Positions 11,232 through 30,402 of a DNA stretch of 64,000 nucleotides are shown here, piece after piece. The notes under the pieces were generated by a model, which had not been told where the DNA came from, searched no databases, and saw only the letters and a list, made by a program, of their open reading frames with translations. How positions within the stretch are numbered: the first letter of the stretch is position 1; each line of letters starts with the position of its first letter. The translations under genes and the position numbers were made by a program. The DNA is taken from assembly GCA_963786955.1 (NCBI GenBank), contig CAWBAT010000006.1, forward strand, positions 288,001-352,000, read 5' to 3'. This stretch comes from an uncultured Acidimicrobiia bacterium (GTDB taxonomy: Bacteria; Acidobacteriota; Terriglobia; Versatilivoradales; Versatilivoraceae).

Positions 11232-11723
11232 TCATTTCTGACCGATTTGATCGATTTCCTTCTTGATGGCCAGCTTGCCTAGGGTAGCGAGCGGCAGGCA
11301 CAAAAAAAGATTGATTCGCCGATCCAGAATCGTGAAGGCGTCGAGAAAGGCGCGGTCGATCTGCTCCTGCGAGCCTTCGACCGCAGCGGGATCGGGGATA
11401 CCCCAGTGCGCCGTCATAGGCTGGCCGGGCCATATCGGACATACTTCCTTCGCAGCGTTGTCACAGACCGTGAATACGAAGTCTAAGTGTGGGGCTTCAG
11501 GCTTCGCGAATTCTTCCCAGCTTTTGCTGTGCAAACCGGTGGTCGGGAGCTTCGCGTTCTCAATCTGCCGAAGCGCTGCGGGATGGATTTCGCCCTTGGG
11601 ATGGCTGCCAGCGCTATAACCGGCAAAGTTCGGGGGGCCTTTCCGGTTGAGAATCGCCTCGGCCATAATAGAGCGTGCAGAGTTTCCGGTACACAGGAAC
11701 AGAACGTTATAGCGGCGTTGCAT
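11232..11723 (-). CDS. arsC: Arsenate reductase, LMW-PTP family
   Basis: LFLCTGNSARS, TVCDNAAKEVCPIWPG, HWGIPDP. Confidence 0.95.
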   Translation of the reverse strand: MQRRYNVLFLCTGNSARSIMAEAILNRKGPPNFAGYSAGSHPKGEIHPAALRQIENAKLPTTGLHSKSWEEFAKPEAPHLDFVFTVCDNAAKEVCPIWPGQPMTAHWGIPDPAAVEGSQEQIDRAFLDAFTILDRRINLFLCLPLATLGKLAIKKEIDQIGQK

Positions 11724-11742
11724 GTCAATCCCCTTTCACGGG

Positions 11743-11865
11743 AGGGAAGGTGTGAAAAGATTCCGCCGGGTCGGGGGACCCGGCCTACAACATAATGGTA
11801 AGCCCTTTGAAATAATTGTAGGCCGCGTGACCTCACGCGGCGTTTTCCAATCCTTTCACACCTCC
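11743..11865. repeat. REP doublet with AGGTGTGAAA terminal inverted repeats
   Basis: AGGGAAGGTGTGAAAAG ... CCTTTCACACCTCC enclosing two GTAG hairpins. Confidence 0.65.
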
Positions 11866-11920
11866 AGGGTGCTGGTGGTTTTCGTTTCGATTCCAAAGTC
11901 TTTCGAGCGACAGTACACTG

Positions 11921-11940
11921 CATCTGCGTAGGCGAATATA
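11921..11940 (-). promoter_or_regulatory. Putative ArsR operator upstream of arsC
   Basis: Reverse complement TATATTCGCCTACGCAGATG shares TATATTCGCCTA-GC with the palindrome in front of arsR. Confidence 0.55.
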
Positions 11941-11957
11941 TAAGAGCAAAAAAAAGC

Positions 11958-12315
11958 TTACGGCGGGCAGCACCCACCCTTTTTGCGGAGCTGTTTCACT
12001 CGCTTTTCATCGGCCGCAAGTTCGGGCACGTCCAGAAAGCAACTCTGAAGACACCGGATCAGATCCCGCTGAAACTTGGTTGGCGGCAGGGGCCAGCCGA
12101 TAGTAGTTCCAAAGACCGTTCTTCCGTGTTTGAACTAAACCGGCCTTACGAAGATAGGCGAGATGCCGCGATGCAGTCGGTTGCGGAACCTGAATCGCGG
12201 CTACAATGTCTCCCACACAAAGCTCGCCACCGAGTAAGAGACGCAGAATTCGTAAGCGCGTCCCATCTGAAAACGCCCGGAACATCAAGTTGGCTTCAGT
12301 CCCCACTCTCTTCAT
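11958..12315 (-). CDS. arsR: ArsR/SmtB metalloregulator (frameshift near 12080; corrected C-terminus ...CLQSCF...KKGGCCPP)
   Basis: FRAFSDGTRLRIL, ELCVGDI, SRHLAYLRKAGLV; alternative frame reads on to TAA at 11958. Confidence 0.9.
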
Positions 12316-12337
12316 TATATTCGCCTAAGCGATTATA
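12316..12337. promoter_or_regulatory. Imperfect palindrome, putative ArsR operator abutting the arsR start codon
   Basis: TATATTCGC-CTAA-GCGATTATA. Confidence 0.6.
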
Positions 12338-12543
12338 ATGAGATTGTGTTTCCCCAGTAAAGGGTGAATTTGAATGGACACGTTTTGGGTACGTAATACA
12401 GTCTTCAAATTATTCGGGACAGCTCTGCTCCCGACCTTATAGTCAGATTTGGAATGAAGGGGAACATCTCTCTAGTAGGGCCACTGGACTTGCACTTCTT
12501 CCGCTTCTTGCATTCTTCAGGAACTCGCGCTATTATTTTCAAG

Positions 12544-12997
12544 ATGCGCGTTCTGCGAAAACTGATTGCGACCACTGTCATGCTGGTGATGGGTCTTTCC
12601 AGCATGAGTGTGGCGATGGTCGCGCAACGACGGATGCCTCAAGCGTCTAAGCCGATGGCTCCGATGTGCCCGAAACACGCGACATATTGTTGCTGTCCCG
12701 AGCTTTGTAATCCTCCTAAAGTTTCTAAAGTTGCGCCGGGATGCCATCATTCAGATAAGAAGCCGAATAATCCTGGCTTGACACCCGCCTCACAAACCTT
12801 CTCATGCTTTCTGAAAGCGGGATGTGGGAAGAACAATGACACCAGTAGCACAATGCCCTTCTTAAAAGATTTCGTTCCAGAACCGCTCGAAGAATTTGGA
12901 GCAAGATTAACAATCGCTTCATTTGTTTCTGCACTAGAATCAACTCAGCCCCTGGAATTCCCTTCCGCGCTCTTTTCACCCTCCCAAAGCCTCCTGA
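12544..12997 (+). CDS. Secreted Cys/His-rich small protein ending FHPPKAS (DUF2946/CruR/CutF-like leader); needs a 1-nt correction in the T run near 12975
   Basis: Signal-like N-terminus; MCPKH..YCCCPELC, GCHH, SCFLKAGC; shifted frame gives LFHPPKAS* with TGA at 12995-12997. Confidence 0.6.
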
Positions 12998-13185
12998 TCG
13001 ACGACTTCTTACTCAAAACACTTAACCAACGGTTCCTCACCCGTTACTGCCTAGCGGACAGGTCTCGTTGAGAGACTGATCGGATTCTCCACAAAGAGAC
13101 GATTTTCTGAGGGCAAAGACTCACTGGCATGCCCAACAGTGTTTCTCTTGGGTCGAGCTAACCGTGTCCTAAGTGTATTTCAACC

Positions 13186-15516: not shown

Positions 15517-15547
15517 GGCCTGTACTTCGCCAGAAACGACAAGCCCA

Positions 15548-15671
15548 GTAGCAACAGGCCTCCTGGCCTGTTGTCTGGGACAAGCATTCCCAGCTTTTGA
15601 GGGTAAAACTCTGCGAGAACAAATCACAAGAGATGCCCACTCCCACGACAGGCGTGGACGCCTGTCGCTAC
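15548..15671. repeat. GTAG REP pair (types A and B)
   Basis: Units match those at 5960-6020 and 25567-25657. Confidence 0.85.
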
Positions 15672-15692
15672 ATAATACAGGGCAACCTTTTC

Positions 15693-15779
15693 AGCTCTGT
15701 AGGAGCGACCTCTTTGTAGCTCCCACCCACAAACAACGGATTTAGCTCCAGCGGAGCGACCCGTGGGCTGGTTATACAG
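15693..15779 (+). repeat. 87-bp imperfect direct repeat, copy 1 (AGCTCyGTAGGAGC family)
   Basis: Colinear with 16279-16365. Confidence 0.8.
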
Positions 15780-15973
15780 AACTGCTTTTCATTGAGCATT
15801 CGCCAATCTATTCCCCCTTAACAAAGGGGGCGCGGGAGAGGTCCCAATCGGTTTCAATGCGCGTTTATTTGCGTTCATTCGCGGCCTATTTTTCTTTGCG
15901 TCTTTGCGTCTTTTTGCGGCTATCTAGTCTTCGCCTCGTGGTCCATACTCTATGTTTTCCGCCTTGAATTTAA

Positions 15974-16204
15974 TACCAAGTTGCAATCAATTGGATACAT
16001 AAAGTCGAGCTTGTCTCTCCGGCGGAGGGGAATCGAAACAAGTCCCCTCTGTGGGAGGGGAAGAGGGCTTTAGCCCTCAGGGGTGGGTATGATTATTAGT
16101 GCGAGCTCGAGCATCCTGCCCGCTTTTTGTCACTAACAAACCCACCCCTACACCCCTCCAGCGGAGGGGAATTCAGATTGTCACCGTTTGAATGCAACTT
16201 GGTA
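15974..16204. mobile_element. MITE-like element, TIR TACCAAGTTGCAwTCAA, TAA flanking duplication
   Basis: TAA|TACCAAGTTGCAATCAA ... TTGAATGCAACTTGGTA|TAA; internal CCCCTC..GAGGGG hairpins. Confidence 0.7.
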
Positions 16205-16278
16205 TAAGGGGGACATGAGGGGGGTCCGTGACGAATTGAAAAAATTCTTATTGCGTCTGATTCAGACCGAAGTTCCAG

Positions 16279-16365
16279 AGCTCCGTAGGAGCAACCTGTT
16301 TGTAGCTCCCACCCAAAGACAAAGCATTTAGCTCCAGCGGAGCGACCCGTGGGGCGGTTACACAG
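16279..16365 (+). repeat. 87-bp imperfect direct repeat, copy 2
   Basis: Colinear with 15693-15779. Confidence 0.8.
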
Positions 16366-16574
16366 CGCTACATAGATAGGACAATGCGATTCCGCCGAAA
16401 CCGTCGCTCGTACCCAGAAAGATGTGCCGACGCAGAACACTCTGAACTTGATAAGGATTTTTGGGCTTTGTTCTTGATTCTGCATGGTTATGTTCTCTAT
16501 TAAGGTATAATGTGTTGATTTTGGCATCGCGCAATACCCTGTTTCATTCCCCCGCCACACCCATACATAAGGAG

Positions 16575-16953
16575 ATGCCCTTTGCTTCAGATCAAACCGC
16601 TTGACCCAAGCGTTCCAATCTTTCAGCAACTCAACACCGATGTCTCACCTGTGGTCTTGGTGAATGTGTTCCAAGTCGCGGAAGCAGACATTCCAGCCCT
16701 TCTTAAGGCTTGGGAAGCGGACGCAAATTGGATGAAGCAGCAGCCCGGCTATATCTCAACGCAGTTGCATCAAGGCATCGCGGGCAGCACCGTGTTCATG
16801 AACTACGCGGTGTGGGAGTCCGTCGCCCATTTTCGGGCGGCGTTCAGCCATCCAGAATTCAAGAAGGCCTTAGAGCACTACCCGCCTTCAGTCGTGGCAT
16901 CGCCCCATCTTTTCACGCGACTCACGGTTCCGAATCTGTGTGTTGGTCCATAG
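16575..16953 (+). CDS. Antibiotic biosynthesis monooxygenase (ABM) family protein
   Basis: VVLVNVF, MKQQPGYISTQLH, FMNYAVWES; RBS AAGGAG before ATG 16575 (probable 1-nt indel just after the start). Confidence 0.85.
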
Positions 16954-17000
16954 GCCGTTTGAACAGGAGAGAGGAATACCAACCTTTAGAGGTGAAGATT

Positions 17001-17210
17001 ATGAAAACGTACACGGCTGTGGTCGAGCGTTGTCCTGACACAGGAATGTACGTGGGGTATGTGCCGGGTTTTCCCGGAGCCCACACCCAGGCGGAGAGCT
17101 TGGACGAATTGAATACCAACCTTCGAGAAGTGATTGGGCTGTTGCTCGAAGACAGAGAGCCTGGTTTGGAAGCGGAATTTGTAGGCACCGAGACCGTCAT
17201 CGTGGGTTGA
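17001..17210 (+). CDS. hicB: Type II TA antitoxin, HicB family
   Basis: MKTYTAVVERCPDTGMYVGYVPGFPGAHTQAESLDELNTNLREVIGLLLE. Confidence 0.9.
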   Translation: MKTYTAVVERCPDTGMYVGYVPGFPGAHTQAESLDELNTNLREVIGLLLEDREPGLEAEFVGTETVIVG

Positions 17211-17212
17211 CG

Positions 17213-17269
17213 ATGGGAAAAAATCTCATCCTTATCGAAGAATTCCTGAAACACGGTAGGTCGGCCTAA
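17213..17269 (+). pseudogene. hicA: hicA toxin remnant with large internal deletion
   Basis: 18-aa ORF MGKNLILIEEFLKHGRSA 2 bp after hicB; ends resemble HicA termini (MGK..., IEEFLK). Confidence 0.55.
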
Positions 17270-17323
17270 CCCATTCACAGCCGTTAGCCGTGTTCTAATT
17301 CAGAGCGTTTCGAGGAAGTGCAC

Positions 17324-17707
17324 ATGTCATCAAAGAAGACACCAGCAGATAGCGACGGGCAGGACGGGATTGTTGCCGAGGCGCGGCGCTACCAGGCTCA
17401 GCGGGAGCAGACCTATCGGGAGCAAGCGCTCAAGCTCTATCCCGGCATCTGTGCACGCTGCGGCCGCGAATTCAGCGGCAAAAGACTGCGCGAGCTCACA
17501 GTCCATCACAAGGACCACAACCACGACAACAATCCACCCGACGGGAGCAACTGGGAGTTGCTGTGTCTCTACTGTCACGACAATGAGCACGAGCGGTATA
17601 AGGTTGCTGATGCGTATGGTGCGGCGACACCGGGCGGGGAGCGAGAGCCCCCTTCTACCTACAGGCCGTTCGCCGATCTCGATGCCTTATTGAAGCGCAA
17701 GAAGTAG
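17324..17707 (+). CDS. yajD: YajD family HNH nuclease
   Basis: YREQALKLYP.ICARCGREF...LTVHHKDHNHDNNPPDGSNWELLCLYCHDNEH. Confidence 0.9.
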   Translation: MSSKKTPADSDGQDGIVAEARRYQAQREQTYREQALKLYPGICARCGREFSGKRLRELTVHHKDHNHDNNPPDGSNWELLCLYCHDNEHERYKVADAYGAATPGGEREPPSTYRPFADLDALLKRKK

Positions 17708-17890
17708 CCGTCCCAGTGCACTATCGACAAAAACGCATGATCGAGAGCTGGGTGGGAAAGAAAAGGAGCCAGAAACCGTTTGCCCAGGCAGCCTGCACGG
17801 GGGGGCTCCCTAGAAACTTCTTCCAGGAACGGACAGTTAGGCAACCTAAAAATATTTGGCAGTACCTTTCTATTGCACGGCCATGAAACG

Positions 17891-17945
17891 GCATAACTAG
17901 CCAGAGGCGAAGGCCTCCAGCCGGGCCTGATGCACGACGTTGGGC
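17891..17945 (+). mobile_element. Degenerate integron attC site
   Basis: GCATAAC ... GTTGGGC, 55 bp, internal hairpin but poor L boxes. Confidence 0.4.
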
Positions 17946-17954
17946 AAACTTTCT

Positions 17955-18503
17955 ATGGAAAATAATCGAATCCAAATGATACTTGTCTCCGCTGCGGCTC
18001 TGTCGTTTTGCTGCCTCAGCTATTCGGAACCTCAACTCAACAACAAGAAAGAAACCACGATGGAACCTAGGATTAGTGTCATTACATTAGGCGTATCCGA
18101 TCTGGAAAGGTCTTTTGCCTTTTATAAGAAAGGCCTTGGATTCCCAACCAAAATGACGCCTGACGGAGGGATTGTAGTTTTTGCTACTTCAGGAACACGG
18201 TTGACTTTGTATTCTTATAAGAAATTGGCAGAAGACGCTGAGCTGACGGCGCCGACAATTGAGAAGGAAAAGAATAAGTTTCCTGGATTTACGTTAGGCC
18301 ATTGTGCTCGAAAAAAAGAAGATGTTGATGCGATATTGTTGCAAGCGGAGAAGGCGGGAGGCAAGATTGTGAAATCCGCTAGAGATGTCTTCTGGGGAGG
18401 ATACAGCGGGTATTTTTCTGATCCAGATGGATACTTGTGGGAGGTTGCCTATTCAGACCAATGGAAATTTAACCCGGATGGTAGCATAGTCATGGAAGAA
18501 TAG
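17955..18503 (+). CDS. VOC/glyoxalase family protein, apparently an integron gene cassette (alternative start 18060)
   Basis: ISVITLGVSDLERSFAFYKKGLG, DVFWGGYSGYFSDPDGYLWEVAY. Confidence 0.9.
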   Translation: MENNRIQMILVSAAALSFCCLSYSEPQLNNKKETTMEPRISVITLGVSDLERSFAFYKKGLGFPTKMTPDGGIVVFATSGTRLTLYSYKKLAEDAELTAPTIEKEKNKFPGFTLGHCARKKEDVDAILLQAEKAGGKIVKSARDVFWGGYSGYFSDPDGYLWEVAYSDQWKFNPDGSIVMEE

Positions 18504-18511
18504 CAGTGAAA

Positions 18512-18572
18512 GCCCAACCAATCGCTGGAGGAACGGCGGACAAGCCGCCGTCCCTCAGCTCTAACGTTTGGC
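18512..18572 (+). mobile_element. Integron attC site (59-base element)
   Basis: R'' GCCCAAC, L'' GCTG[G]AGG, stem ACGGCGG-ACAAG-CCGCCGT, L' CCTCAGC, R' GTTTGGC; R'' is the exact complement of GTTGGGC at 17939. Confidence 0.78.
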
Positions 18573-18603
18573 GCCTGCACCACCCACCGATCCGCTGCAT
18601 GAC

Positions 18604-18669
18604 GCGATAAGGGATTCCATGGCAATGACGAACGGCAAGAACACTCTCGGCCGCGTGTACGAGTACTTC
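18604..18669 (+). pseudogene. hsdM: Short type I R-M methyltransferase (hsdM)-like remnant
   Basis: KNTLGRVYEYF resembles the conserved KDxLGRVYEYF segment preceding the GxFYTP motif of HsdM. Confidence 0.5.
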
Positions 18670-18717
18670 GTCGCGGCCAGTGGCGGTCCCGGCGCACGGA
18701 CCACAACGCGCGGATCC

Positions 18718-18969
18718 AGCAGCACACCGGCAGCGCTTTTCACTCTTGAAGGAGAGAAGATGATCCTGCTGGAACAACACCTAGTTGCCAAACTTTCTGT
18801 TGGCGTCGATCTTTTCCAGAAGGAATCCCATCAGGTGAATCAGCAATTTTATGCAGAAAACATCACTAACCGTGAGTTTGCCATCGCTAAAGAGAGCGAG
18901 TTTACCCCCGTCCAGTTTTCGTCCCTATGCTTCCTATCCGGGTTCGGGAAATTTTATTTTTGAGGCCTG
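18718..18969 (+). pseudogene. Diverged duplicate of the last 82 codons of the TonB-dependent receptor
   Basis: Ungapped match to 15271-15522, about 80% nt identity by manual count, including TGAGGCCTG at the stop. Confidence 0.9.
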
Positions 18970-19000
18970 CCTCGCTAGTGGTGACAGGTTAGACAGAGAG

Positions 19001-19031
19001 AGGGGGAGCAGATGAGGCTCTTCCTCCCCCT
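19001..19031. terminator. Hairpin between convergent genes
   Basis: AGGGGGAG ... CTCCCCCT. Confidence 0.35.
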
Positions 19032-19146
19032 ATCAATCTCTTAGTGCATGCATTCGCCGCATTTAGGGTAACCGCTTTCTTTCAGGCCTCTCCACATCTC
19101 TCTTTTGGATGACCGCATTATCACCATAACATTTCGAAAAGATTCG

Positions 19147-20796
19147 CTAACGGTAAAGTGAGGCTGCAGAGCGAGCAACCCTATTCAAACTAGACCGAAC
19201 TTCATAAAGCAGATCATCCCCAGGTATACTTGGGTCCTGTTGAAGCACGTGATGCCCAAGTGCCATCGCATACTCACTAAATGCAATCTCAAAACACAAC
19301 CGGCGAAAAGCAACGTCTTCAGGTCCACTCGTTTCTAGTGCAGCCTTAACAACAGGGTGATCAAGATTAATTAATATTGTTAGTATAGCCGGATCGTATC
19401 TGGAACGGTCTTCTGTAGAACCCAAGTGCTGATGCTTTACTCGAAAACCGCCCCGCGGCATGCTCTGTTTTGATGATCCCGAGCCAGCACGGTCGACGGT
19501 CCTGTTGCCTTTATCATCTCTTGTAGCAGGTCTGACAAGGCGTGGATCGCTGCGCCCCCCTGAATTGCCAACAACTTTTAACTTATTCCTATTGTCAAAA
19601 CGGCCTGGTTCAGTTCCGCCTTCTATCCACGATTCCTCGCTACCCCCTCCAACCTGAGCACGGCCAGATCGTTGTGCTGCTGCACCCGGCGCAATGGCTG
19701 TCGCCCTTATGTCGGTCAACCGGTCCAGAAGACTTGTAAAATCTTCGTTGAGAACCTCCGCGATTCGGTTAGCCTCAGCGTCAAGCCTTCTGGCCTCCTC
19801 GGTTTTGCGAGCCTCTTTGGCACGCCGAACCAAATCGCTCCTAACCAGTTCTAATTTTGAACCGATGAACCCCAGCAGAACAGCTGCAACAGGATGCTGG
19901 GGATTCAACTGTAGTGACCTAGTAGGATCGAAAGGCTGCAATGGACTGTCAGATCTCTCTAACTCTGGAACGTCTATTTCTCCGAAGAGGTAAGTTCCAA
20001 ACTCTTTGTTCTCGACACCTGCACGCTCTACGGACAAGAGATTTCCGCCACCCGCTGTGATCGTAATACCTTGGTCCGCCTCCCTCAGTGGGGCACGTGC
20101 CACTTTGATAAGCAGCTCAACATCACCGATTACTCGAGCTTGAGATTCGGTTGGCCGGAAAGAGTGGATTGTGTCAATCTCGGGTTCCCGGTAACAGCAA
20201 ACATGGTTATTTACTGCTACCTCCGGCATTAATGCACGGAAAACTTGAAGATGACGCTCGATGTACTCAACGATTGGTTGTGTCCTTATGCGTTCCAGAG
20301 CTATGTCTTCTATAGAGATCATCGTTCCATTAGGTGTACCTACTCTCTCGTTTCGAATTTCCCATACGAGCGGGATGTCCTCTCCATTGGAATTTTCTAT
20401 TTTTTCACGCGTGAGGATAATGACGTTCCTTAGCCCCTTCCGAACTGTGTCGACTCTCAAACATCGAGCGATCCCGAAGGCAGCTGACTTCCCAGTACCG
20501 AACTTGCCTCTTCCTGGTCGACCCCGAAGACGATCAAGGTTCTCGGCATGCATTTTGAAGAAATGTTCCAGGTCCGGTTCATCCATACCGCGACCATTAT
20601 CACTTATTCTAATTATTCGTTGCTGGGGTAAAACGTCCACGACGACTCGAGGGGCAACGTTCCTGTCTACGAATTGAAGACTGTTAACTACGTACTCCCA
20701 CACAGCAGCAGCTTCAGTTTTAAAAGAAGTAGCCGACGCAAGTAGATCGCGACCGACGTGGGATGTGACTTTGATTTCTGCCAAACGCTTTTTCAT
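19147..20796 (-). CDS. GHKL (MORC/HATPase_c_3-like) ATPase
   Basis: EYVVNS (N-box), ISDNGRGM (G1), GKFGTGK (G2), NGT (G3), C-terminal INLDHP. Confidence 0.85.
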   Translation of the reverse strand: MKKRLAEIKVTSHVGRDLLASATSFKTEAAAVWEYVVNSLQFVDRNVAPRVVVDVLPQQRIIRISDNGRGMDEPDLEHFFKMHAENLDRLRGRPGRGKFGTGKSAAFGIARCLRVDTVRKGLRNVIILTREKIENSNGEDIPLVWEIRNERVGTPNGTMISIEDIALERIRTQPIVEYIERHLQVFRALMPEVAVNNHVCCYREPEIDTIHSFRPTESQARVIGDVELLIKVARAPLREADQGITITAGGGNLLSVERAGVENKEFGTYLFGEIDVPELERSDSPLQPFDPTRSLQLNPQHPVAAVLLGFIGSKLELVRSDLVRRAKEARKTEEARRLDAEANRIAEVLNEDFTSLLDRLTDIRATAIAPGAAAQRSGRAQVGGGSEESWIEGGTEPGRFDNRNKLKVVGNSGGRSDPRLVRPATRDDKGNRTVDRAGSGSSKQSMPRGGFRVKHQHLGSTEDRSRYDPAILTILINLDHPVVKAALETSGPEDVAFRRLCFEIAFSEYAMALGHHVLQQDPSIPGDDLLYEVRSSLNRVARSAASLYR

Positions 20797-21407
20797 TTCT
20801 GTCCCTCATTCACACCAAGAAATTTCGCAGCAACATCAAGAAACTCTGCAATGTCAGGATCCTCAATAAATAATCCATGCAACCTTGTGACCTTTGATTG
20901 CCGCAGTGTCTCGTCTGAATAGCTGTCTACGCGGAACAATTCGCGTGCCTCTGCAGGCGTTATCCTCCTGTTGCCAGAAGTCCAGCGTGCCCATGCTGAG
21001 GATGCAAGCAACCTTTCTCTCTCGCGGGTTCTCCTAGTTGAGTCGATTGATTTGAGCATTGACTCCGATCTATGCCTGTCAATCTGAAGGTTTGGCATCT
21101 TGGCCTTCATTGATGTAGCCCATTTCAGCCCCCGAACTGTGAGAGACCAGCCCGTTCGGCCCGAACCAGATATCAAAGCTCCCTTCATCGGCTTTTTTGC
21201 ATCCGAGAGAAATACTCGTACGAGTTCAAGATTGATCTGGTCCGGATACTTTCTCCAAACAAACCGCCCAGGGGCTAGTTCATGTGCTTTAACCGCTATA
21301 TCCTCGGTATCTAGCCGATGCTGGTCCCCACCCAAGACATAAACTGCCCACACTACAGCATCTCTCTGCGATATACTTGTCAAGGATTTTTTCTTGTTTT
21401 TTTTCAT
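20793..21407 (-). CDS. Hypothetical protein, probable winged-helix DNA-binding domain
   Basis: DTEDIAVKAHEL...VRVFLSDAKK...GWSLTVRG resembles a wHTH wing; ATGA overlap with the ATPase. Confidence 0.6.
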   Translation of the reverse strand: MKKNKKKSLTSISQRDAVVWAVYVLGGDQHRLDTEDIAVKAHELAPGRFVWRKYPDQINLELVRVFLSDAKKPMKGALISGSGRTGWSLTVRGLKWATSMKAKMPNLQIDRHRSESMLKSIDSTRRTRERERLLASSAWARWTSGNRRITPAEARELFRVDSYSDETLRQSKVTRLHGLFIEDPDIAEFLDVAAKFLGVNEGQK

Positions 21408-21417
21408 TGACCGAGTA

Positions 21418-21446
21418 ATATTAATGACGGATTAACCGATAGTCAA
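21418..21446 (-). promoter_or_regulatory. Putative sigma70 promoter giving a near-leaderless transcript
   Basis: TTGACT-17 bp-TAATAT, ending 10 nt before the ATG at 21407. Confidence 0.5.
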
Positions 21447-21459
21447 GGAATTTTTGTAT

Positions 21460-23606
21460 ATGAAAGGTATTGCTCAATGGGGCTTTCGACCAACGCCCCT
21501 TCTCCCAGAGATCCTTAGAGATCGCTGGACAGGAGAACTGCCAAAATGGGTCATATCCGAGCTCAACCTGTTACCTGGATCGTCATTCGGTTCATTAGGA
21601 TCCGGTGTCTGGAAGAATTTTTCTGAAGCCGGAGTATCTGGAAGGATCCGCTCATTTCTGATTAGCGCCATAAGGAACCGCCTTGCGGAAGTAAGCGATC
21701 TCTGCCTCATAAATGAAGTATGGCCGAAGAGTTTGCTGCCCCGAGATGTTCCTTGGTCGGCACGTACAAGGAACTGCTTAGAAAAAGAAGGACTTCTCGA
21801 CGACCCAGCGAGACTCGTGAAGCTTAGGGTAAAAGACCTCTTGCGAATTCATGCTTTTGGGGCAGCATCCGTTTTGGATTTGTCTTGCGTAGCTGAAGCG
21901 GTTCTAACAGCAGGGCGGTCTCGTCCTCCTGAGCCTTCTAATGTGGTGGCCGATATTCTCTATTTGATTGAGCATGATTGGGCTGAACAGATCAGTTCTG
22001 ATGACCCGAGATTTGCAGACATAATTCCGGTTGGAAGTGGGAACTCTATGAACGGGTCGATCGGCTGACTGTTGAACCCCAGGATCCGCCATTGGAGGAG
22101 AATGAGCTTGCTGAGGCAATTCCTGCAATTATTAACCGAATTGATCAGATAAGCTCTTTGAGATTGGAAATCGCTATCATTGAATTAGTAAAAAGCATCT
22201 CACATCTTGAAGGCAAGCGCCTCCATGCGCTGGCAAGACGGCTTGGTGTCGATGGGAAGCCACCCGCAACACTTGAGCACGCGGCAAGTTCAATTGGGTT
22301 AACAAGAGAGAGGATGCGCCAGTTGCAGCAAAAATTTGAAGAGCGGCTCCCGAGACACAATCTTTTTCTGCCTCAACTTGACAAAGCAATAAAGCTCATA
22401 GAAGAAAAAGCTCCTTGTTCAAAGAAACATGTTGAAGAGGTAATACAATCGGTAGGGATAACCAATATCAAGTTTGACGTCGAAAGTATTATTGCTGCTG
22501 CTGAATTAATGAAGAGGCCCATTGCATTCGAGCTGGATGGTTCCCTCAGTCGTGTAAGACGACGAGATTCAGCTAAACTAGAACAATCTATTCGATACGT
22601 TTCTCATCGTCAGGCAAGCGCTTCCGGAGTGAGTAATGCCCATGAAGTTGTTGCTGAAATTGAATCATTAGGACTCTCTGTTACTGAGGCAGACGTCCAC
22701 GAATTCCTTCAGTCGTCACATGAGTTCGAATTTCTCGACTCAAACTGGTACTGGTATCCACCAGCCCCGCCTGATAGAAATAGGCTAAGAAACGTATCCA
22801 GGAAAATGCTCTCCGTTTCAGCTGTGATTCCTTTACCCGATCTCAGAGAAGGAATTAGGCGCCATTATCGAGTACGCACCTCTAGAGGACTTGGGACGTG
22901 GCCTCTCATAGTACCTCCGAAGGCTGTTTTGTTGAATTTCTATAAGTCTCATCCAGAGTTCTCTGTTGACTCTGAGGAGACTGTATCTTCTATTGTACCT
23001 TTGGACTATCGCAGGGAACTTAATTCTACTGAACAAATTCTTGTTGATGCTATTCGATCAACTCCAAGCCAGGTCTTAGACAGGGAAAATCTTGCGAGAC
23101 AATGCATTAACCAGCACGGGATGAACGGAAATACTTTCTCGCAATATTTGTACTCAAGCCCTGTGATAAATCATCTCGGCACGGACCTTTGGTCTTTGCG
23201 TGGTATTCGGATAGATCCGGCTTCTGTGGAAGCAGTTCGTCAAGCTAACGCTCTCAGAACCAGAGAAAAACGCATTGTCGACCACGGCTGGACGGAGGAA
23301 GGTGATCTTTGGATTGTCGCGAGGATTCCCCATGAACCGGCCAGGTTCGTACTTGGAATACCTGCACCAATTCGACATATTCTCGGAGAACAAGAATTCG
23401 TTGCAGTTGAGAACACAGGAGTCCCTTCGGGAATTATTCGGACAAACTCCGAAGGAGTTTCTTATGGATATGGGACCTTCCTAATACGTAGGGGCGCTGA
23501 TGAGAATGACTTACTTCTCGCAAAGTTTCGGCTCTCGCAAAAACAGGTCGAGCTTCAGCTTATCGATGACGATGAATTAGAAGAGATGAGTCCAACTCCC
23601 GACTAA
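21460..23606 (+). CDS. About 715-aa protein with an RNAP alpha-CTD-like domain and a sigma70 region-4 HTH (1-nt frameshift near 22040)
   Basis: WSARTRNCLEKEG...DLLRIHAFGAASVLDL (alpha-CTD); RLGVDGKPPATLEHAASSIGLTRERMRQLQ (sigma-4); downstream frame stays open back to the G run at 22039-22041. Confidence 0.8.
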
Positions 23607-23731
23607 CATTTAGTGGCCAAAATATATAGACGACCAGTCCTCCAGGAACGATCATCCTGGCCAACTAGGGCAGTGGCCACCTAACCATTACAACCGTGGC
23701 CGCAGTCTATAGTTACGTTTCCAACGTGACC

Positions 23732-23850
23732 GATCTATTCTAGATCGTGATCGTACGAGACATGTGGCTCACGGGCTTTGACGCGCCGAGCTTGTACACG
23801 ATTTACGCGGAAAAGCCGATGCGCGAACACTGGTTGATGCAATCTGTTGG
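23732..23850 (+). pseudogene. hsdR: Type I restriction endonuclease subunit R remnant
   Basis: [36 protein letters not shown] corresponds to HsdR helicase motifs V-VI, with an in-frame stop. Confidence 0.85.
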
Positions 23851-24101
23851 CATTGTAAATGATCAAGTCGTTACTTGCCTCCGCCTTGATAAAGTGAAAA
23901 TCAGCCCCAGCGCAGGGAACATACTCAGCGACCCAGCCGCCACCTCGATGCTCAAGCTCGTACAAACGCATTATGTATTGTTACGAATTACCCACGCCTC
24001 GCTTTGCTCAGCGTGGCTACCCAAGCGGGATTGTAACGCCAATTTAATGCGTTTGTTTTAGTTCATCGGGCAATCCAACGAAACAGCAAAGGAGAATCTT
24101 C

Positions 24102-25286
24102 ATGCAATCCCACCACACCAACCGTTACAGGGCCGGTCTTATCGCAGCTCTGACATTGCTGTTCTCCTCCCCGGCTATGGCCGCCGATGGCAAGACGGAA
24201 GGGGGCAACGCTGCGGTGGACCCCTTCGTCGGCCTCCAGCCGGGTCTGGGCAGCTTGCCGCTCCTCGGCCGGGGACGCACCCGGTCGATCTCGGCCGAGA
24301 ACCCGACCGGCGAGAAAGGGAAAGGGCGGCATGGCAATCCCCAATCCGACCGAGCCCAAGCCGGCGGCGAGCGCCCGGGCTGCGGACGACCTCGGCCAGG
24401 GTTGGAAAGTCCGGCCTTTCATCCGAGTCAACGCCGGGAAACGGCGGTACTCATGGATGTGGCCGGCCCGGGGATCATCCAGCACATCTGGATGGTCGAA
24501 GGATCTAAACCGCGGCCTTGTCATCCGGTTCTACTGGGATGGCGAAGAGACTCCATCGGTGGAGTCGCCCGTCCCGGACTTCTTCGCCGTGGGCCACGGC
24601 CGGTTCGCGCCGGTGAATTCCCTGGCGGTCGTGGTCAACCCCGCCAACGCCCTGAATTGTTTCTGGCCGATGCCGTTTCGGACGCGCGCCCGGATCACTC
24701 TGACCAATGAAACCGACGAGGATGTTAGTTGGTGGCCTACCAGATCACCTACGTGGAGACCGAGGTCCCTGCCGCGGCTGGCACCTTCCACGCCCAATAT
24801 CGCCGGGCAACGACGGGAGAGCAGAATCCGTACATAATCCTCGATGGCGTGAAGGGACGGGGTCGCTACGTCGGCACATTCCTGGCCTGGACCCAGATGG
24901 AGAAGGGCTGGTTCGGCGAGGGAGAGATCAAGTTCTACATGGACGGTGACGACCGGTTCCCGACGATCTGTGGCACCGGAACCGAGGATTATTCCTGGGC
25001 AGCTACGGCTTCCCCAACCGTTTACGACGGCCTACTCCGGGACGGTCCTGCCAGCTAACGAGAACAACCCACCGCCCAACTTCTGGAGCCTTTACCGTTG
25101 GCACATTCAGGATCCGATCAATTCGAGCAGGATTTGCGGGTAACGATTCAGGCTCTGGGATGGGGCGGACCCCAATACCGAAAGCTCGGGAAAGACGACA
25201 TCTCCTCGGTCGCTTACTGGTACCAGGTTGAGCCCCATGCACCCTTCCCGAAACTCCCAGCTCTCGCCGAGCGGCTCAGGCCATGA
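24102..25286 (+). CDS. DUF2961 / GH172 family glycoside hydrolase, several frameshifts
   Basis: RSISAENPTGEKG, GPGIIQHIWM, RFYWDGEETPSVE, WFGEGEIKFYMDGD, GTGTEDY, SVAYWYQ. Confidence 0.85.
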
Positions 25287-25450
25287 TTGGCGGGGGAAAT
25301 GAGTCGCCTCCCCCCATCGGGAGAGCGTTTCACCGAATCCGAAGACTCCGAGGCGGGGGGATTTCACGCCTGTGAATAGGACATCCCCCGCAGCCTTGCA
25401 TGAAGGCTTCTCAAGCCTTCATCCCCCTTCCAAGGGGGACTTTTTCAATT

Positions 25451-25690
25451 CCCCAGGGCGGCGCGCTCAAGCGCTGGCCCTGGGCTACAATCGGTGGCCC
25501 TTACAGGGCCGAAAAGTGGCTCAGCGTCAGGCGTTCTGGTAACCCCTGTGTCATCCACACAAGACAGTAGCAACAGGCCTCCTGGCCTGTTGTCCGGGGC
25601 CAACGGCCCCGGCTACAACAGCAAAACCCCACGACAGGCGTGGACGCCTGTCGCTACAAAAGACTTTCCGGGGCCAGCGGCCCCGGCTAC
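25451..25690. repeat. REP-like hairpin cluster (types A, C, B, C plus others)
   Basis: Same units as 5960-6133; lies between convergent genes. Confidence 0.85.
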
Positions 25691-25705
25691 AAAAAGCGGT
25701 TGTCG

Positions 25706-26986
25706 CTACTTCAGTAAGAGTCCAGCCTGCTTGCGAAGGTTGAGCTGGTTCTTTTCTTCTTCCAATTTAACATCCAAATATTGTAACCAACGACCGCTCT
25801 CTTCCCGCCGTACTTCTTCCAGCTTGGCAAGTGGAATTTTCCCTTCATCGTAACTGGCTTGGGCAACCTGCAAATTTTCACGAGCAAGCTGAGCCTCCAG
25901 AGCCGCAACCTCTGCTCTGGCTTTAAGAACCTGCAGATTTGCCAATTCGCTTTGCGTCTCCATTCGAATCTGATCGGAGCGTAATTTGATCTTTAGTCTT
26001 GCTTCATCCTGAAGGGCTTGAAGCCGGCGTTTCTCAGGATTCAAGGTCGGGTTAATCAAAGGTACTTGAATCGAGAATCCAATAGTGACGTTATTTCGTT
26101 GAAAGTTGTTAAAGTACTTGTCGTAATTATTAAACGTGCTAAAGAGATCATAGCGTCCGACCAAGTTCACAACCGGACGGAACCAGCCGTTCAAGCCTTC
26201 CTCCGCAACTTGAGACGATTTCTCTTGAAGGCGCAATTGCATGAGGGCTGGATCTCTGTCCAAGGCCGCCAACAGCAATGTCTCTTCTGACCATTCCGCG
26301 GCACTCCCCCCTGGATCCTCCGCTTTCAAGTGTTAAGGAGACGCCCGGCGCCACGCCAGTCGCTTGCCTGAGTTGCTCTTCCAGAAGTTGCAGATTCTTT
26401 TCATTGGTTGTGAGAGTCACTTTAGTCTTTGCCAATTCCAGCTTTGCCCTGGTCAGCTCGCGAGGCTGTGCAACGCCTGCCTCAACCCGGGCTGCGATGA
26501 TTTCGCGCGTTTTTCCAAGGCTTTCCAGTTGAGTTTGGTAATACTGGTGCCGCTCTCGCTGATTCCGTAAATCCAGGAAGATCCGACCGGCTTCCAGCGC
26601 TGCTTTCTGTTGCACGGATTCCACTTCAGCCTGAGAACCTTCTTCCTGAAGTTCAGCAGCATCTGCTTGTTTACGCTGATTACGATCGTAAAGCGTTTGA
26701 ATGTAATTCACATTAAACAAAGAAGGGGCCGCCCCTTCAATACTCAAGGGGAATCCGTAAGTCCCTGCGATACCCGTTCCTACGCTCAAATGGGGACCAA
26801 AAGGCGCTTTTTCCAGATCCCTTCCGGGCAGCGGCAGTCTCATGTGCCTGTTTTGGCTATTTGAACCTGCTGACTCAATTCAGAAGCACGCTCGAGAGTC
26901 CCTTCCAGAGTGAGATTCAAGGACTCAGCTAAACCCAGGCTGGGCAAACTTATCACCATCAACATGAAACCAATGTTCCTATTCAT
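25706..26986 (-). CDS. TolC family outer membrane efflux protein (frameshifted)
   Basis: Helical OEP repeats across ORFs 26148-26843 and 25706-26329; signal peptide from ATG 26986. Confidence 0.8.
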
Positions 26987-28190
26987 ATCTGAGAGCCTCC
27001 ACGGGATTCAGTCGTGAAGCCCGAACCGCAGGCACCATCCCAAAAGTTAATCCCACCCCAAGGGTGACCCCCAAGCCGAGCACAATTGCCAAAGCGGGAA
27101 TCTCGATCCTAACACTGGGGGCAAAAAGTCTTACCAAGTGGGGGACTGTAATTCCCAAAAGGATCCCCACGAGACCTCCACCACCACTCAGAATCAAGGC
27201 TTCAACCAGGAACTCAATGAGCAATACCCTCCGCCTGGCTCCCGCTGCCATTTTGATTCCAATCTCCCTGGTTCTTTCTGTCACCGTAATCAGCATCACG
27301 TTCATGATCCCAATCCCACTCGCCAAGAGAGAGATGCAGGCAATGACTAAGAGAACGAGAGACAGCCCAAGGCTAATCTTATTGGCTGCTTTCAAAATTT
27401 CCGTCAAATTGTCGACTTTGTAAGAAGATTGTTTTCGGTGGCGGAGAGTGAGGAGTTGACGGATTTCCGTGGTTAAAGGGGGCACCCATTCGAGACTTTC
27501 TGCCGAGACATAGATTGCATCCACCGTATCGTTTTGTTTGAAATAGCGGATGACCGACACAGGAATAATCACACTGTGATCTGAAACTTCAGATTCCCCA
27601 AAGGTACTGACCCGCTCACGGAAAACGCCAATGATTGAAAAATTGATTCCATGCAGGGTCAGCGAGCCCTTATAAAAAGGGTCGAGCTGCAATTTGCGAA
27701 AAAGCTGTTCCGTAGCCAGACAGACTTTGCTTCGAGACCGCTCATCCTCCGAATCGATAAATCGACCTTCAAGAACTTGAATACTGCGGACTATCTGGTA
27801 ATCGGGCGTGGTTCCGATCAAGGTAATCATGCGAGGGTTCCCTTTGATTATGACTGAATCATAATCCAGGACCACCGGCGCAGCCTTCCGAACTCCCTCA
27901 TGAATGCCCTGAATGGCCCGGACATCCTCAAAGTTCAGTTTGTCGGAAAGTGTCGTGATGCCGCTCGCCGCTTCAGAAGCCTCATAATAGACATAGATGA
28001 GGTTGGATCCAATGCCTCGAATTTGATCCAGCGTATACTCCCTGCCACTTATCCCGGCGACCACAACCAGAACGAGGGAGGCCGTTCCCATGACCATACT
28101 CAAAGAGGTTAAGGCTGCTCGCCCCCAGTTGCGGCCCAATGCATTAACAGCCGATCGCAGGATTTCAAGAATTGAGAATTTGGGAGTCAC
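26979..28190 (-). CDS. MacB/FtsX-type ABC transporter permease
   Basis: GIGIMNVMLITVTERTREIGIKMAAGA, ASRLNPVEALRYE. Confidence 0.92.
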   Translation of the reverse strand: MTPKFSILEILRSAVNALGRNWGRAALTSLSMVMGTASLVLVVVAGISGREYTLDQIRGIGSNLIYVYYEASEAASGITTLSDKLNFEDVRAIQGIHEGVRKAAPVVLDYDSVIIKGNPRMITLIGTTPDYQIVRSIQVLEGRFIDSEDERSRSKVCLATEQLFRKLQLDPFYKGSLTLHGINFSIIGVFRERVSTFGESEVSDHSVIIPVSVIRYFKQNDTVDAIYVSAESLEWVPPLTTEIRQLLTLRHRKQSSYKVDNLTEILKAANKISLGLSLVLLVIACISLLASGIGIMNVMLITVTERTREIGIKMAAGARRRVLLIEFLVEALILSGGGGLVGILLGITVPHLVRLFAPSVRIEIPALAIVLGLGVTLGVGLTFGMVPAVRASRLNPVEALRYE

Positions 28191-28192
28191 CG

Positions 28193-29196
28193 TTACTTCC
28201 TTTGATTTTTCATTTGTTGCCTGGCTTCCGCCAAGCCTTTTTGCGAAGGAGAATGGGCAGCGAAAAGGTTGAGAGACTTTTCGAATTTGCCGATCGCTTC
28301 CGCCGGTTGATTGAGCTTAAGATAAAGCTCCCCCAGCCAATAGTAAGCCTCAAACGGATAGGGATTTCCCGAAGAATATAATTTCAGGAAAGCCTCCATC
28401 TCACGGCGTCCGCTCTCCAGATTTCCGCCCGACTCGATTTCAAAACGACCGAATTCAAAGTGAGCGACAGCCGATTCTGGAAATACTTGCACGGCTTTTA
28501 ACCATATTTCCCGCGCCCGGTTTACGTTTTTCTTGTCCTGATAGAACTCAGCCAACGCCAATAATCCTGCGCTGCACGGGGGGGTCAGTGCTGCAGCCTT
28601 TTGAAGCGTTGTCTCCGCCTGTTCGAAGGACTTCTCCTGTTCGCGGATCTGGGCCAATTGCACAAGGTAGTAGCAAGGATGCCGATCCTTGATCTCGTCG
28701 ACGAGGGCTGCGGCCTTCTCTTTTCCTCCACCCAGAAATCCGGGGGCTTCTAGATAATAACTGAGGAGGTCGTCACGGGCATCCAGGTCGTTTGGGTCAA
28801 GATCAACGGCAGTCCGGAAGGCATTGTGCGCCTGTCTCGCCAGAAAGGGCGCCCTAAAGGGGATCGCCTGCTCTGCTTTCCTGCCGAGTGCGCGTCCCAG
28901 CCAGAGGAAATACTGGGAGCTGTCCGGCTTGCCTTTCGAAGCTTTTTCCAGCAAATCTGCAGCCTTGTCGATCTCTCCCGACAAATAAGCGAGCTTGCCT
29001 AATAAAAACCACCCTTCAATTCCCTGCCCGTCAGCCGAAAGAGGTTCTAACAAGCGCGGGCCCGGTTAAAGTCGCCATGATTGAACAACGCCTTGGCCTC
29101 ATCAATGCGGTCGGGCAGTGACAAAGTCGTGGCAAGAGCCGGGAATATCAACAGAACTATGCTCAAGGTGAGCACCGCAGTCTTTGGGCTGTTCAT
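28193..29196 (-). CDS. Exported tetratricopeptide repeat protein (frameshift near 29060)
   Basis: TPR-like repeats; YYLEAPGFLGGG. Confidence 0.8.
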
Positions 29197-30402
29197 GGGG
29201 CAGGCATTTCTCCGGGGTTGATCACGATGCGGTTGCCTTCTTCCAATCCCTGCAGAATCTCGACTTCCTGCGGAGTGACCATCCCGAGGACGACACGTTT
29301 CAAGACGGTATGGCCCCCAACATCCAGCGACACCGTTGATTGACCCTCGTGGTTAAAGACGGCAGCCCGCGGCACGACAAGCGCACCCGGTTTCCTGCTC
29401 GTCACAATCTGGAGCTTAAGATTGATGTTGGGGATGAGTTCCACCGGGTTGCCTTCCACAGAGCAGAAAACATATCCGACCGATCGATTTCCCAAAGGGA
29501 GCACCTGCTGGGCCGGTTGCTCCACTTTGCCCGGCCAGCGCTTATCGGGCAGGCCGTCCCACTCAATTTCGATCGGCTGCCCCTTCGCTATTCTTCCCAA
29601 GTCTGGCTCGTCAACATAGGCCTTCACGCGAATGTGACCTGGCTCGTAAATCTGAGCTAACAGTTGCCCCTTGCTGACATAGGCCCCCGTGCGGATGTTG
29701 AGACCATAAATCCGCCCGCTCCGGGGGGAAAGAACTGACCCTGACGCCATCTGCATGGTGAGAAGCTCTACTTCTTCACGCAACTCCTTGACTTTGTTTC
29801 CTTCCCATTCCTTTTCCTCGGGAGAGAAGCGGTTTATAAGATGTTGTTTTTTTGCCTGAGAGCCTCAAGGCGAACTTCCAGCAGATTGACCTGGCCGCGA
29901 AGATTCTCGACATCGACACGGGTCGTGGCATCCCGCTTCAGCAGATTTTCTTCCCGCTGAAGATCTTGCCTCTTCTTCCTCAATTCCCACTCCGTCTCTG
30001 AAACAGCCGATTCGATTCCTGCCATTTCATCCTTCGGCGGACCCGCTAAGACGGGCTGAGCCTGGCGTTGCGCCTGCAGCAGAGCGGCCTTTGCGCTGGC
30101 CAGTGACATTGCCAATTGGTCTGATTCCACCTGCAGGAGTCGCTCGCCTTTCACGACAAGATCGCCTTCCTGATGGGACAAAAGCCTGACAATGCCGTCA
30201 AAAGGCGCCAGCACATCGGATCTTTCGATTGGCTCGACTACCCCATTGGTGCTGATGACCGATTTGAGTTCGCGCCGGCTCACGTTGGCTGTCATCAAAT
30301 TCGAGTCGCTCCCATTTCTCCTATAAAAATGAATACCCTCCCCAAAGGGAAAGAAGAATGAGCGCGAGCAAGCCAACGAAGAAGAATTTTCTTACGTGTC
30401 AT
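29193..30402 (-). CDS. Efflux RND/MacA-type periplasmic adaptor subunit (frameshifted)
   Basis: Lipoyl-like halves (APFDGIV..EGDLV; SPRSGRI), coiled coil, ALVVPRAAV, GLEEG. Confidence 0.85.

Follow-up and report, generated by a model that had tools for sequence, protein, structure and literature searches.

The stretch of DNA analysed here, referred to as the window, comprises 64,000 nucleotides (nt) of an uncultured Acidimicrobiia bacterium that GTDB places in the Acidobacteriota (Terriglobia; Versatilivoradales; Versatilivoraceae), and corresponds to positions 288,001 to 352,000 of contig CAWBAT010000006.1 in assembly GCA_963786955.1. Within it we describe a cassette of three genes. The largest, which we call the reader, encodes a protein predicted to carry modules related to the RNA polymerase alpha subunit's C-terminal domain (alpha-CTD) and to region 4 of sigma-70 factors (sigma-4). 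Divergent from it, at a distance of 46 nt, lie the genes of a small partner protein of 204 amino acids (aa), p204, and of a GHKL ATPase. In the assembly the reader appears as two open reading frames (ORFs, called with translation table 11). ORF1 (21454..22068, + strand; 204 codons, the last ~9 out of frame) holds its N-terminal part, consisting of an N-domain and the alpha-CTD-like domain, and ORF2 (22092..23606, + strand; 504 codons, with the frame open from 22005) holds its C-terminal part. The p204 gene occupies 20793..21407 on the - strand, and its stop-side end overlaps by 4 nt the start of the gene for the 549-aa ATPase (19147..20796, - strand). The divergent intergenic region between the starts of p204 and the reader spans 21408..21453.

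Sequence comparison confirms that ORF1 and ORF2 are the two halves of a single gene of ~715 codons, split in this assembly by one missing base. Full-length relatives of the reader are 715-723 aa long; when eleven of these are aligned with the window's two ORFs, ORF1 covers the N-terminal ~200 residues and ORF2 everything after them. A search with ORF2 returned 92 clusters, mostly single chains of 700-735 aa labelled 'hypothetical protein'. Where the relatives read 'GSG-T/E-LYERIDRL', the window reads V-G-S-G in frame 1 (GGG, 22039-22041) and then E-L-Y-E-R-V-D-R-L in frame 3 (GAA, 22041-22043). This switch from frame 1 to frame 3 beside a GGG run indicates that one base is missing at about 22041, within a frame break that we place at 22039..22043 on the + strand. 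Among 68 metagenome loci compared by tblastn, ORF1 matches the 5′ part of a single reader gene in 38. Of the 38 loci that hold both the N- and C-terminal parts, 37 have them in a common frame; the one locus with the two parts in different frames is L139.

The break is probably an assembly error, because many other genes of the window are broken as well and because bases are missing in excess relative to a congeneric genome, G002. At least seven other window genes are frame-broken, namely those encoding a DUF2961 protein, an outer-membrane efflux protein (OEP), HlyD, squalene/phytoene synthase (split at profile position 178), a radical-SAM/DUF3463 (HpnH-like) protein, squalene-hopene cyclase and LytB; broken genes lie at 24102-25302, 25706-26843, 29193-30376, 50187-53137, 55375-56287 and 59304-59858. 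The flanks of the cassette are 91-94% identical to G002 over ~6.9 kb of mostly coding sequence, and 21 indel events separate the two; in 14 of these the bases are missing in the window's genome (G000), and only 3 events fall in homopolymers of 3 or more. The assembly thus seems to carry single-base deletion errors. A genuine break, which would make the window's copy a pseudogene or two separate genes and would concern this copy rather than the family, is in our judgement fairly unlikely. It has in its favour that the assembly as given shows the break, that no contig of sequencing runs X1-X4 spans 22026-22333, the interval that includes it, and that L139 likewise has its two parts in different frames. 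The broken neighbouring genes and the missing bases point the other way, as does the intactness of the GHKL and p204 genes. Public runs sharing sampled words with the genome number 22, with shares of at most 0.18 and no RNA run among them.

The first of the two polymerase-related modules is an alpha-CTD-like helix-hairpin-helix domain encoded at 21742..21924 (+ strand; ORF1 residues ~97-157), recognised through Pfam, NCBIfam, profile-profile comparison (hhalign) and conserved columns. The window's own copy matches PF03118 over ORF1 residues 102-142 at E 0.014 and 15.6 bits, under the Pfam cut-off of 23.8 bits. Among 58 full-length members of the reader family, 11 match PF03118 at E≤0.01 and 32 at E≤1, and more distant members carry one to three copies of the domain, with scores of 42, 50-60, 91 and 213 bits. 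The family profile aligns with the alpha-CTD of the host RpoA at an hhalign probability of 44% (E 2.4e-4), and the near-invariant R, T, N, C, L ... G, S of the module fall opposite 'svRsyNCL ... fGrkS' of the host protein. These columns are kept in nearly all of the 58 members: R102 in 58, T103 in 57, N105 in 57, C106 in 51, L107 in 58, G134 in 57 and S137 in 56. We take them to correspond to R265, N268, C269, G296 and S299 of E. coli alpha; the column that would be equivalent to K298 is not conserved in the reader. The NCBIfam rpoA models match the reader only at model positions ~243-297, and no family for the N-terminal dimerisation and assembly domain of RpoA appears in the Pfam or NCBIfam scans. 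Lacking that domain, the reader is not a polymerase alpha subunit. In the available text of PMC9178005, the '265 determinant' of alpha-CTD (R265, K298) is described as binding UP elements. A second weak PF03118 match in the genome (L163) was considered and proved unrelated to the reader family (hhalign 0.2%).

The second module is a sigma-70 region 4-like helix-turn-helix at 22164..22373 (+ strand; ORF2 residues ~25-94), identified by NCBIfam, Pfam, a PDB profile, hhalign and a structural model. Its coordinates, like those of the domains that follow it, were mapped from a relative, P0002 (for sigma-4 with an offset of 211 residues). ORF2 residues 33-87 match the NCBIfam model of RpoS at 2.5e-9; the window's own Pfam match is under the cut-off (E 0.075), and 55 of the 58 family members match PF04545 at E≤0.01 and all 58 at E≤1. 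Searched against the PDB, the family profile finds region 4 of RpoS and RpoD at E 1e-10, aligning only profile positions 235-309, and against region 4 of the host RpoD it reaches an hhalign probability of 95% (E 3.5e-8). In that pairing the reader's 'TLEEAg..lGVTRERmRQlq' stands opposite 'TLEEVGQNFAVTRERIRQIE' of the host RpoD, so that the reader's recognition helix, 'VTRERmRQ', is nearly identical to 'VTRERIRQ' of the host factor. Its columns are almost fixed among the 58 members (T282 in 54, R283 in 57, E284 in 57, R285 in 58, R287 in 57, Q288 in 58), and presumably include the counterparts of E585, R586, R588 and Q589 in E. coli numbering. The reader is homologous to the group 1 and 2 factors RpoD and RpoS over regions 4.1-4.2. 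It differs from them in carrying region 4 in the middle of a 715-aa chain with no region 2 or 3 detected, and the matches of the reader family in Pfam, NCBIfam and the PDB-profile search cover only region 4, with none to region 2. Without regions 2 and 3 the reader is unable to melt promoters and does not qualify as a sigma factor. The E. coli residues named above are given as DNA-contact residues of sigma-4.2 in the available text of PMC9178005.

The remainder of the chain was interpreted from an AlphaFold2 model of P0002 (715 aa, 61% identical to ORF2), built with a 58-sequence alignment as input and reaching a mean pLDDT of 91.4 and a pTM of 0.61. Compared as a whole chain, the model has no Foldseek match at E≤0.001; it does give high-probability local matches. 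Residues 237-300 superpose on domain 4 of S. aureus sigmaA (4g6d_A) with Z 7.9 and a root-mean-square deviation (rmsd) of 3.0 over 62 of 62 residues at 31% identity, and Foldseek pairs the model with sigmaA region 4 in 7kuf_B at probability 1.00 and 34% identity. Downstream of sigma-4 the model contains three tandem winged helices (P0002 residues 369-440, 441-514 and 519-585; 22563..23213, + strand), with fold matches of Z 7.2-8.8. In a search independent of Foldseek these include the tandem winged helices of SelB (2v9v_A, Z 8.8, 117 residues aligned), 2od5_A (Z 8.6), 9j89_D (Z 8.0) and forkhead- and Zur-type domains (Z 7.2-7.4); Foldseek also retrieves SelB (1lva) at probability 0.98. Pfam's HARE-HTH family (PF05066) matches none of the 58 members at E≤1; an Atlas cluster carrying HARE-HTH at 0.75 is a lead only.

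The last ~110 residues (P0002 residues ~606-715; 23274..23603, + strand) are predicted to form a pseudobarrel resembling the DNA-binding B3 and EcoRII-N domains. Foldseek finds 1yel (probability 1.00, TMt 0.64, rmsd 3.3), the TEM1 B3-DNA complex 7et6_D (probability 1.00) and the N-domain of LlaJI.R1 (6c5d_B, probability 0.99), with TMt values ranging from 0.47 to 0.64. VIA, with the domain searched within the whole chain, returns 1yel at Z 7.3, 6c5d_A at Z 7.0 and EcoRII (1na6_B and 3hqf_A) at Z 6.8 with 103-104 residues aligned, the VIA matches overall aligning 92-104 residues. These Z values are middling by VIA's yardstick, on which a Z under 8 may reflect merely a common arrangement. In the model the region superposes on the N-domains of EcoRII and LlaJI.R1 and on plant B3 factors; unlike the restriction enzymes, the reader has no attached nuclease and no detected sequence similarity, and the B3 families of Pfam match none of the 58 members. 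Comparison by hhalign of nine reader segments, the two halves of p204 and the parts of the GHKL protein with one another revealed no internal repeats (best probability 10%).

Taken from the model and the profiles together, the predicted order of the reader is an N-domain of residues 1-90, the alpha-CTD-like helix-hairpin-helix, a helical linker, the sigma-4 helix-turn-helix, three winged helices and the B3/EcoRII-N-like barrel. The protein would consist almost entirely of DNA-binding modules and carries no recognisable enzyme domain. The first-pass annotation of this locus had read the two ORFs as one chain after a 1-nt correction, had placed alpha-CTD and sigma-4 on that chain while noting that it is not a sigma factor, and had described helical segments followed by a beta-rich C-terminal domain. 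All of this agrees with the family-wide data, in which alpha-CTD is the weaker of the two assignments; the helical and beta-rich parts correspond to the winged helices and the barrel of the P0002 model. In the whole-chain structure searches with P0002, the top 50 rows included sigma-4 and not alpha-CTD.

The near-constancy of the contact residues suggests a constant target rather than strain-specific sites, which fits a protein that reads promoter features and equally one that imitates them. The first-pass annotation had offered both options, a reader of strong phage promoters or a decoy for RNA polymerase. As a decoy, the alpha-CTD and sigma-4 modules would mimic the surfaces targeted by phage takeover proteins, of which T4 supplies AsiA, a binder of sigma-4, and Alt and ModA, which modify alpha; capture of such a protein would switch on the ATPase. 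Polymerase-like surfaces that hardly change across 58 members are what one would expect of a target forced to stay polymerase-like, and the defence-type context described below is in keeping with it. The same conserved residues, however, are also those that contact DNA, and four further DNA-binding folds, the three winged helices and the B3-like barrel, lie on the same chain; alpha-CTD, moreover, is present in two to three copies in many relatives, a multiplicity that fits multivalent DNA binding more readily than mimicry. We regard the decoy as a poor candidate. The presence of four additional DNA-binding domains, together with an obligatory partner ATPase of MORC-like type, suggests that the reader's ligand is DNA. 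The promoter-reading option keeps a plausible core in the contact residues, retained in 51-58 of the 58 members and including the 'TRERxRQ' helix, and in the DNA-binding folds of the other domains; DNA binding itself is a prediction.

What the first-pass annotation had overlooked is that the reader belongs to a fixed cassette. When the four ORFs of the window were compared with the 68 metagenome loci, the same arrangement was found wherever the contig reaches far enough, with p204 present in 29 of 33 and the GHKL gene in 24 of 25 such loci. Departures from this pattern are a deletion variant (L093), two loci whose upstream parts are unrecognisable (L115 and L125) and a fragment (L141). An all-against-all comparison of ORFs of at least 90 aa, covering the window and 22 loci of at least 7 kb, yielded only three families that recur beyond near-duplicate contigs, aside from their shadow ORFs. 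Across 13 non-redundant loci, nine having been left out as duplicates or truncated, the pairwise identity matrices of reader, p204 and GHKL protein correlate at r 0.93-0.95, a value as high being reached in 0 of 2000 permutations; mean pairwise identity is 0.62 for GHKL, 0.55 for p204 and 0.50 for the reader. Such correlation speaks for co-inheritance of the trio, not for binding.

The ATPase is the partner with the clearest relatives. It matches Pfam HATPase_c_3 at 1.1e-14, and its layout comprises an ATPase and transducer (residues 12-327), a helix of 67 residues (302-368), a linker modelled with low confidence (369-448) and, at the C-terminus, a conserved domain (450-549). Across 47 sequences, the motifs E34/N38, D66-N67-G68-x-G70, G95-R-G-K-F-G-T-G-K103 and G108 are either invariant or conserved to at least 90%. 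In its AlphaFold2 model (pLDDT 76.8), the GHKL and S5-fold transducer module superposes on Morc3, MORC2, SMCHD1 and MutL with Z 17.2-19.9 and 269-289 residues aligned. For residues 12-327 the VIA matches are Morc3 (5ix1_A, Z 19.9, rmsd 3.2, 280 aligned), MORC2 (5of9_A, Z 19.9), SMCHD1 (18.1) and MutL (17.2-17.3, with 9n2k_B at 17.3), together with Hsp90 and Topo VI-B, and Foldseek retrieves MORC2 bound to DNA (9cdh_A) at E 5.8e-13. By sequence the only match in the PDB is HtpG, at 0.007. The model thus places the ATPase structurally with the MORC/MutL module. Its C-terminal domain (residues ~450-549; 19147-19500, - strand) shows weak zincin- or YbeY-like fold matches (1oz9_A, Z 8.2; YbeY, Z 6.6-6.8). 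Residues 450-549 contain neither an HExxH nor an H-x3-H-x5-H metal motif; a single histidine, H480, is invariant in the 47 sequences, as are E503, E508, D521 and D528. The domain may represent an unrecognised active site or an interaction domain.

The small partner p204 has no match in Pfam, PADLOC or NCBIfam and none among PDB sequences at E≤5. It is conserved in 15 aligned loci, with a mean column identity of 59%, and in the ESM Atlas it finds only unannotated look-alike clusters. Upstream of its start the intergenic region contains, on the - strand, a sigma-70-type promoter-like site composed of TTGACT (from 21446), a 17-nt spacer and TAATAT (to 21418), with 9 of 12 positions matching the consensus, which is what the assignment consists of. 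This site would put the transcription start a few bases at most from the start codon of p204, so that the p204-GHKL transcript looks nearly leaderless. In most loci the divergent region measures ~41-55 nt. A conserved -35-like TTGnnn hexamer abuts each of the two start codons, and the Lys-rich beginning of p204 contains a T-rich tract (21380-21460 in the window, and the same region of L084-L144).

A short divergent control region with -35-like hexamers and a T-rich tract makes binding of the reader to its own promoter a cheaper alternative, in which it would simply regulate transcription of its own cassette or a mobile element, acting on the region before p204. NCBIfam, for its part, names the analogous protein MzaA a sigma-70 family factor. 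A chain of 715 aa with seven or more nucleic-acid-binding modules is nevertheless far beyond what such a regulator needs. The reader, the ATPase and p204 also diverge together as one unit, and members of the reader family are fused to other domains, P0350 to GmrSD_N/DUF262 and P0341 to four helicase-associated (HA) domains; the set made up of these two proteins with P0220 and P0294 includes members in which alpha-CTD occurs two to three times (91 and 213 bits). The promoter sites are consensus matches alone. We give a purely regulatory role little weight.

The cassette is widely but patchily distributed. A profile of the reader matched none of 60 relatives and only one of 400 further genomes of the phylum (G414). 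Among 1.84 billion representatives, 1051 clusters at 50% identity match the reader profile at E≤1e-30, and a query with the GHKL protein finds 1483 clusters at 90% identity; the database labels of these reader and ATPase clusters are merely 'hypothetical' or 'ATP-binding protein'. When the full-length alignment profile was run against genome contigs, all 80 loci kept matched only residues ~190-337, that is sigma-4, and are apparently the genomes' own sigma factors. On this evidence the cassette is a sporadic, evidently horizontally mobile and self-contained three-gene unit that, judging from the database clusters, is common in environmental bacteria.

In the window the unit sits in a variable slot. 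G002 has syntenic flanks, between which the 5.4-kb stretch 18643..24041 with the trio is replaced by 3.2 kb holding a Schlafen-group-3-type helicase split into three ORFs and an S24 peptidase domain (L160; G002:C15, 3719-5247). This exchange identifies a variable hotspot flanked by a glyoxalase gene and a DUF2961 gene. Directly downstream of the reader, 36 residues encoded at 23750-23857 (+ strand) match residues 654-689 of EcoR124I, in its helicase region, at E 3.7e-4; this HsdR relic looks like what is left of a defence gene that once occupied this slot. The borders of the island show no convincing flanking direct repeats, and no tRNA genes are found at 10000-30000 of the window. An ORF encoding a UPF0150 (HicB-like antitoxin) protein lies at 16710-17210 (+ strand), about 2 kb from the hotspot. 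Short stretches at ~15970-16209 and ~25453-25620 recur at 80-93% identity at dozens of sites in G002 and probably represent a small dispersed repeat (REP or MITE-like).

Of 102 flank ORFs within 10 kb of the cassette in 16 independent metagenome loci, 85 were scanned, and 11 of the loci have at least one integrase, transposase, terminase, toxin-antitoxin, Abi, AIPR, Thoeris ThsA-Macro or Schlafen family in that range. A further arrangement is that of G414. Its reader is a distant, full-length version of 812 aa with an extra alpha-CTD copy (42 bits), related to ours by hhalign at 100% over 625 columns, and its trio (reader, p193 and GHKL) is co-directional, unlike the divergent layout of the window. 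These genes belong to a cluster of seven co-directional genes (L161; G414:C4, 2005-17769) in the order HmaA (DUF1822, NOV_C), p193, GHKL, reader, HmaB, PIN and HmaC, with matches of 1.1e-190 for HmaA, 4.3e-131 for HmaB and 2.6e-125 for HmaC. The trio is thus nested between hmaA and hmaB-hmaC of an Hma (helicase-methylase-ATPase) defence system, an arrangement that, in the available text of Payne et al. (bioRxiv 10.1101/2024.01.29.577857), was used to find new defences; there, 7 of the 9 Hma-embedded cases put to the test gave protection. The trio is not itself a component of Hma and is mostly found without it.

The variable slot, the HsdR relic, the nesting in Hma and the mobile or defence neighbours together lend support, from genomic context, to a defence setting of the kind the first-pass annotation had presumed. 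The same observations bear on a rival in which the cassette is a DNA-maintenance or chromosome-organising module, performing MutL- or MORC-like repair or compaction with no role in defence. Such a module would explain why the GHKL fold also matches the ATPase modules of MutL and topoisomerases (Z 16-17), why 5 of the 16 loci have housekeeping neighbours and why no effector is recognised in the trio. It sits badly with the absence of the unit from all 60 relatives and all but one of 400 further genomes of the phylum, with its slot adjoining an HsdR relic, with its nesting in Hma in G414 and with the mobile or defence neighbours of 11 of the 16 loci. We consider a maintenance role improbable.

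Among described systems, the anti-phage system mzaABCDE is the nearest that has been tested, and the cassette lies far under its cut-offs. In the NCBIfam models of MzaA and MzaB (NF041931, NF041932), the reader matches MzaA at 2.2e-4 to 2.3e-6, or 20-27 bits against a cut-off of 800, and the GHKL protein matches MzaB at 3.8e-5, or 22 bits against 850. Both systems pair a large protein bearing sigma-4 with a MutL-like GHKL ATPase. They differ in that sigma-4 lies at the C-terminal end of MzaA (model positions 619-701 of 726) and in mid-chain in the reader, and in that the cassette has no Z1 or AIPR partner genes; an AIPR gene is near one of the 16 loci, and no Z1 family is listed. In the available text of PMC9523054, mzaA is the sigma factor of the mzaABCDE system.

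The ATPase also recalls the prokaryotic MORC and paraMORC proteins, whose MORC/MutL GHKL module was linked to restriction-modification operons with an SF2 helicase, nuclease and methylase (Iyer, Abhiman and Aravind 2008, PMC2292703, in the text available). The cassette resembles these in combining GHKL with an S5-type transducer and in being sporadic and mobile, and in G414 the trio stands beside an SF2 helicase-nuclease and a methylase. By contrast, the scanned flanks of the 16 metagenome loci show no linked helicase, nuclease or DNA methylase, and the word 'sigma' has no occurrence in the available text of PMC2292703. A 2026 preprint, in its available part, still terms the defence role of prokaryotic MORC-like ATPases proposed. 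The main text of Payne et al. likewise contains no occurrence of GHKL, HATPase, MutL or sigma. We found no description of a protein combining alpha-CTD and sigma-4, or of the trio, in a literature coverage that did not extend to the supplements of Payne et al. or to Aravind and Iyer 2012 (HARE-HTH, PMC3272235).

On balance we lean, with slightly better than even confidence, towards a reading in which the reader serves as DNA-recognition subunit in an unnamed, MORC-like cassette, a candidate for defence, formed with p204 and the GHKL ATPase. The reader would bind duplex DNA through its heads derived from RNA polymerase, the alpha-CTD-like head reading the minor groove of an A/T-rich stretch and the sigma-4-like head a -35-like hexamer next to it, with the winged helices and the barrel adding further DNA contacts. 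It would then position or license the ATPase, possibly through p204, and the ATPase, dimerising on ATP, would hold the bound DNA in a clamp, loop it or compact it. Given its setting, the cassette most likely acts against invading DNA such as phage and other mobile elements, either alone or by feeding helicase, nuclease and methylase systems such as Hma. A specific alternative is nuclease-free xenogeneic silencing, in which the reader, with its alpha-CTD head for UP-like A/T tracts and its sigma-4 head for -35 hexamers, would vie with the host polymerase for the strong promoters of incoming DNA and load a MORC-like clamp that compacts or blocks the DNA; we rate this version as distinctly unlikely.

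Several observations weigh against the reading of the cassette as a DNA-recognising defence system. At the level of the protein, the modelled structure is that of P0002, a 61%-identical relative, and not of the window's own protein, and the alpha-CTD fold is absent from the top 50 structural rows of that model; as those rows are filled by winged helices, the alpha-CTD-like part and the N-domain were effectively not probed by fold. Restriction systems diversify their specificity subunits, whereas the DNA-contact residues of the reader are near-invariant. A protein that recognises generic promoter features would be expected to bind the host's own promoters as well, which makes the sparing of these a difficulty; no DNA methylase is found among the 85 flank ORFs scanned, which leaves discrimination between self and non-self without explanation. 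No nuclease or other clear effector is recognised in the trio, and PADLOC gives no meaningful match for it (stray hits to REase_II at 0.007 and MzaA at 0.028, and none for the trio of G414). As to mobility and context, queries with the GHKL protein matched nothing among PLSDB plasmids, INPHARED phages and IMG/VR, and 5 of the 16 loci have housekeeping neighbours only. The window's reader copy, finally, may be inactive if the frame break is real. The first-pass interpretation as a whole is partly supported.

The cassette links two questions, namely the role of prokaryotic MORC-like ATPases and the way in which such ATPases are aimed at DNA. A reader assembled from the promoter-recognition parts of RNA polymerase, with its DNA contacts frozen, offers a concrete and testable hypothesis for both. 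If the trio defends its host, it would add a new type of defence system, and if it silences DNA without cutting, it would represent a new mode of bacterial immunity. Should silencing prove true, the cassette would be a bacterial counterpart of the silencing of transposons by eukaryotic MORC proteins, and would defend by recognising 'promoter grammar' in invading DNA instead of a modification state.

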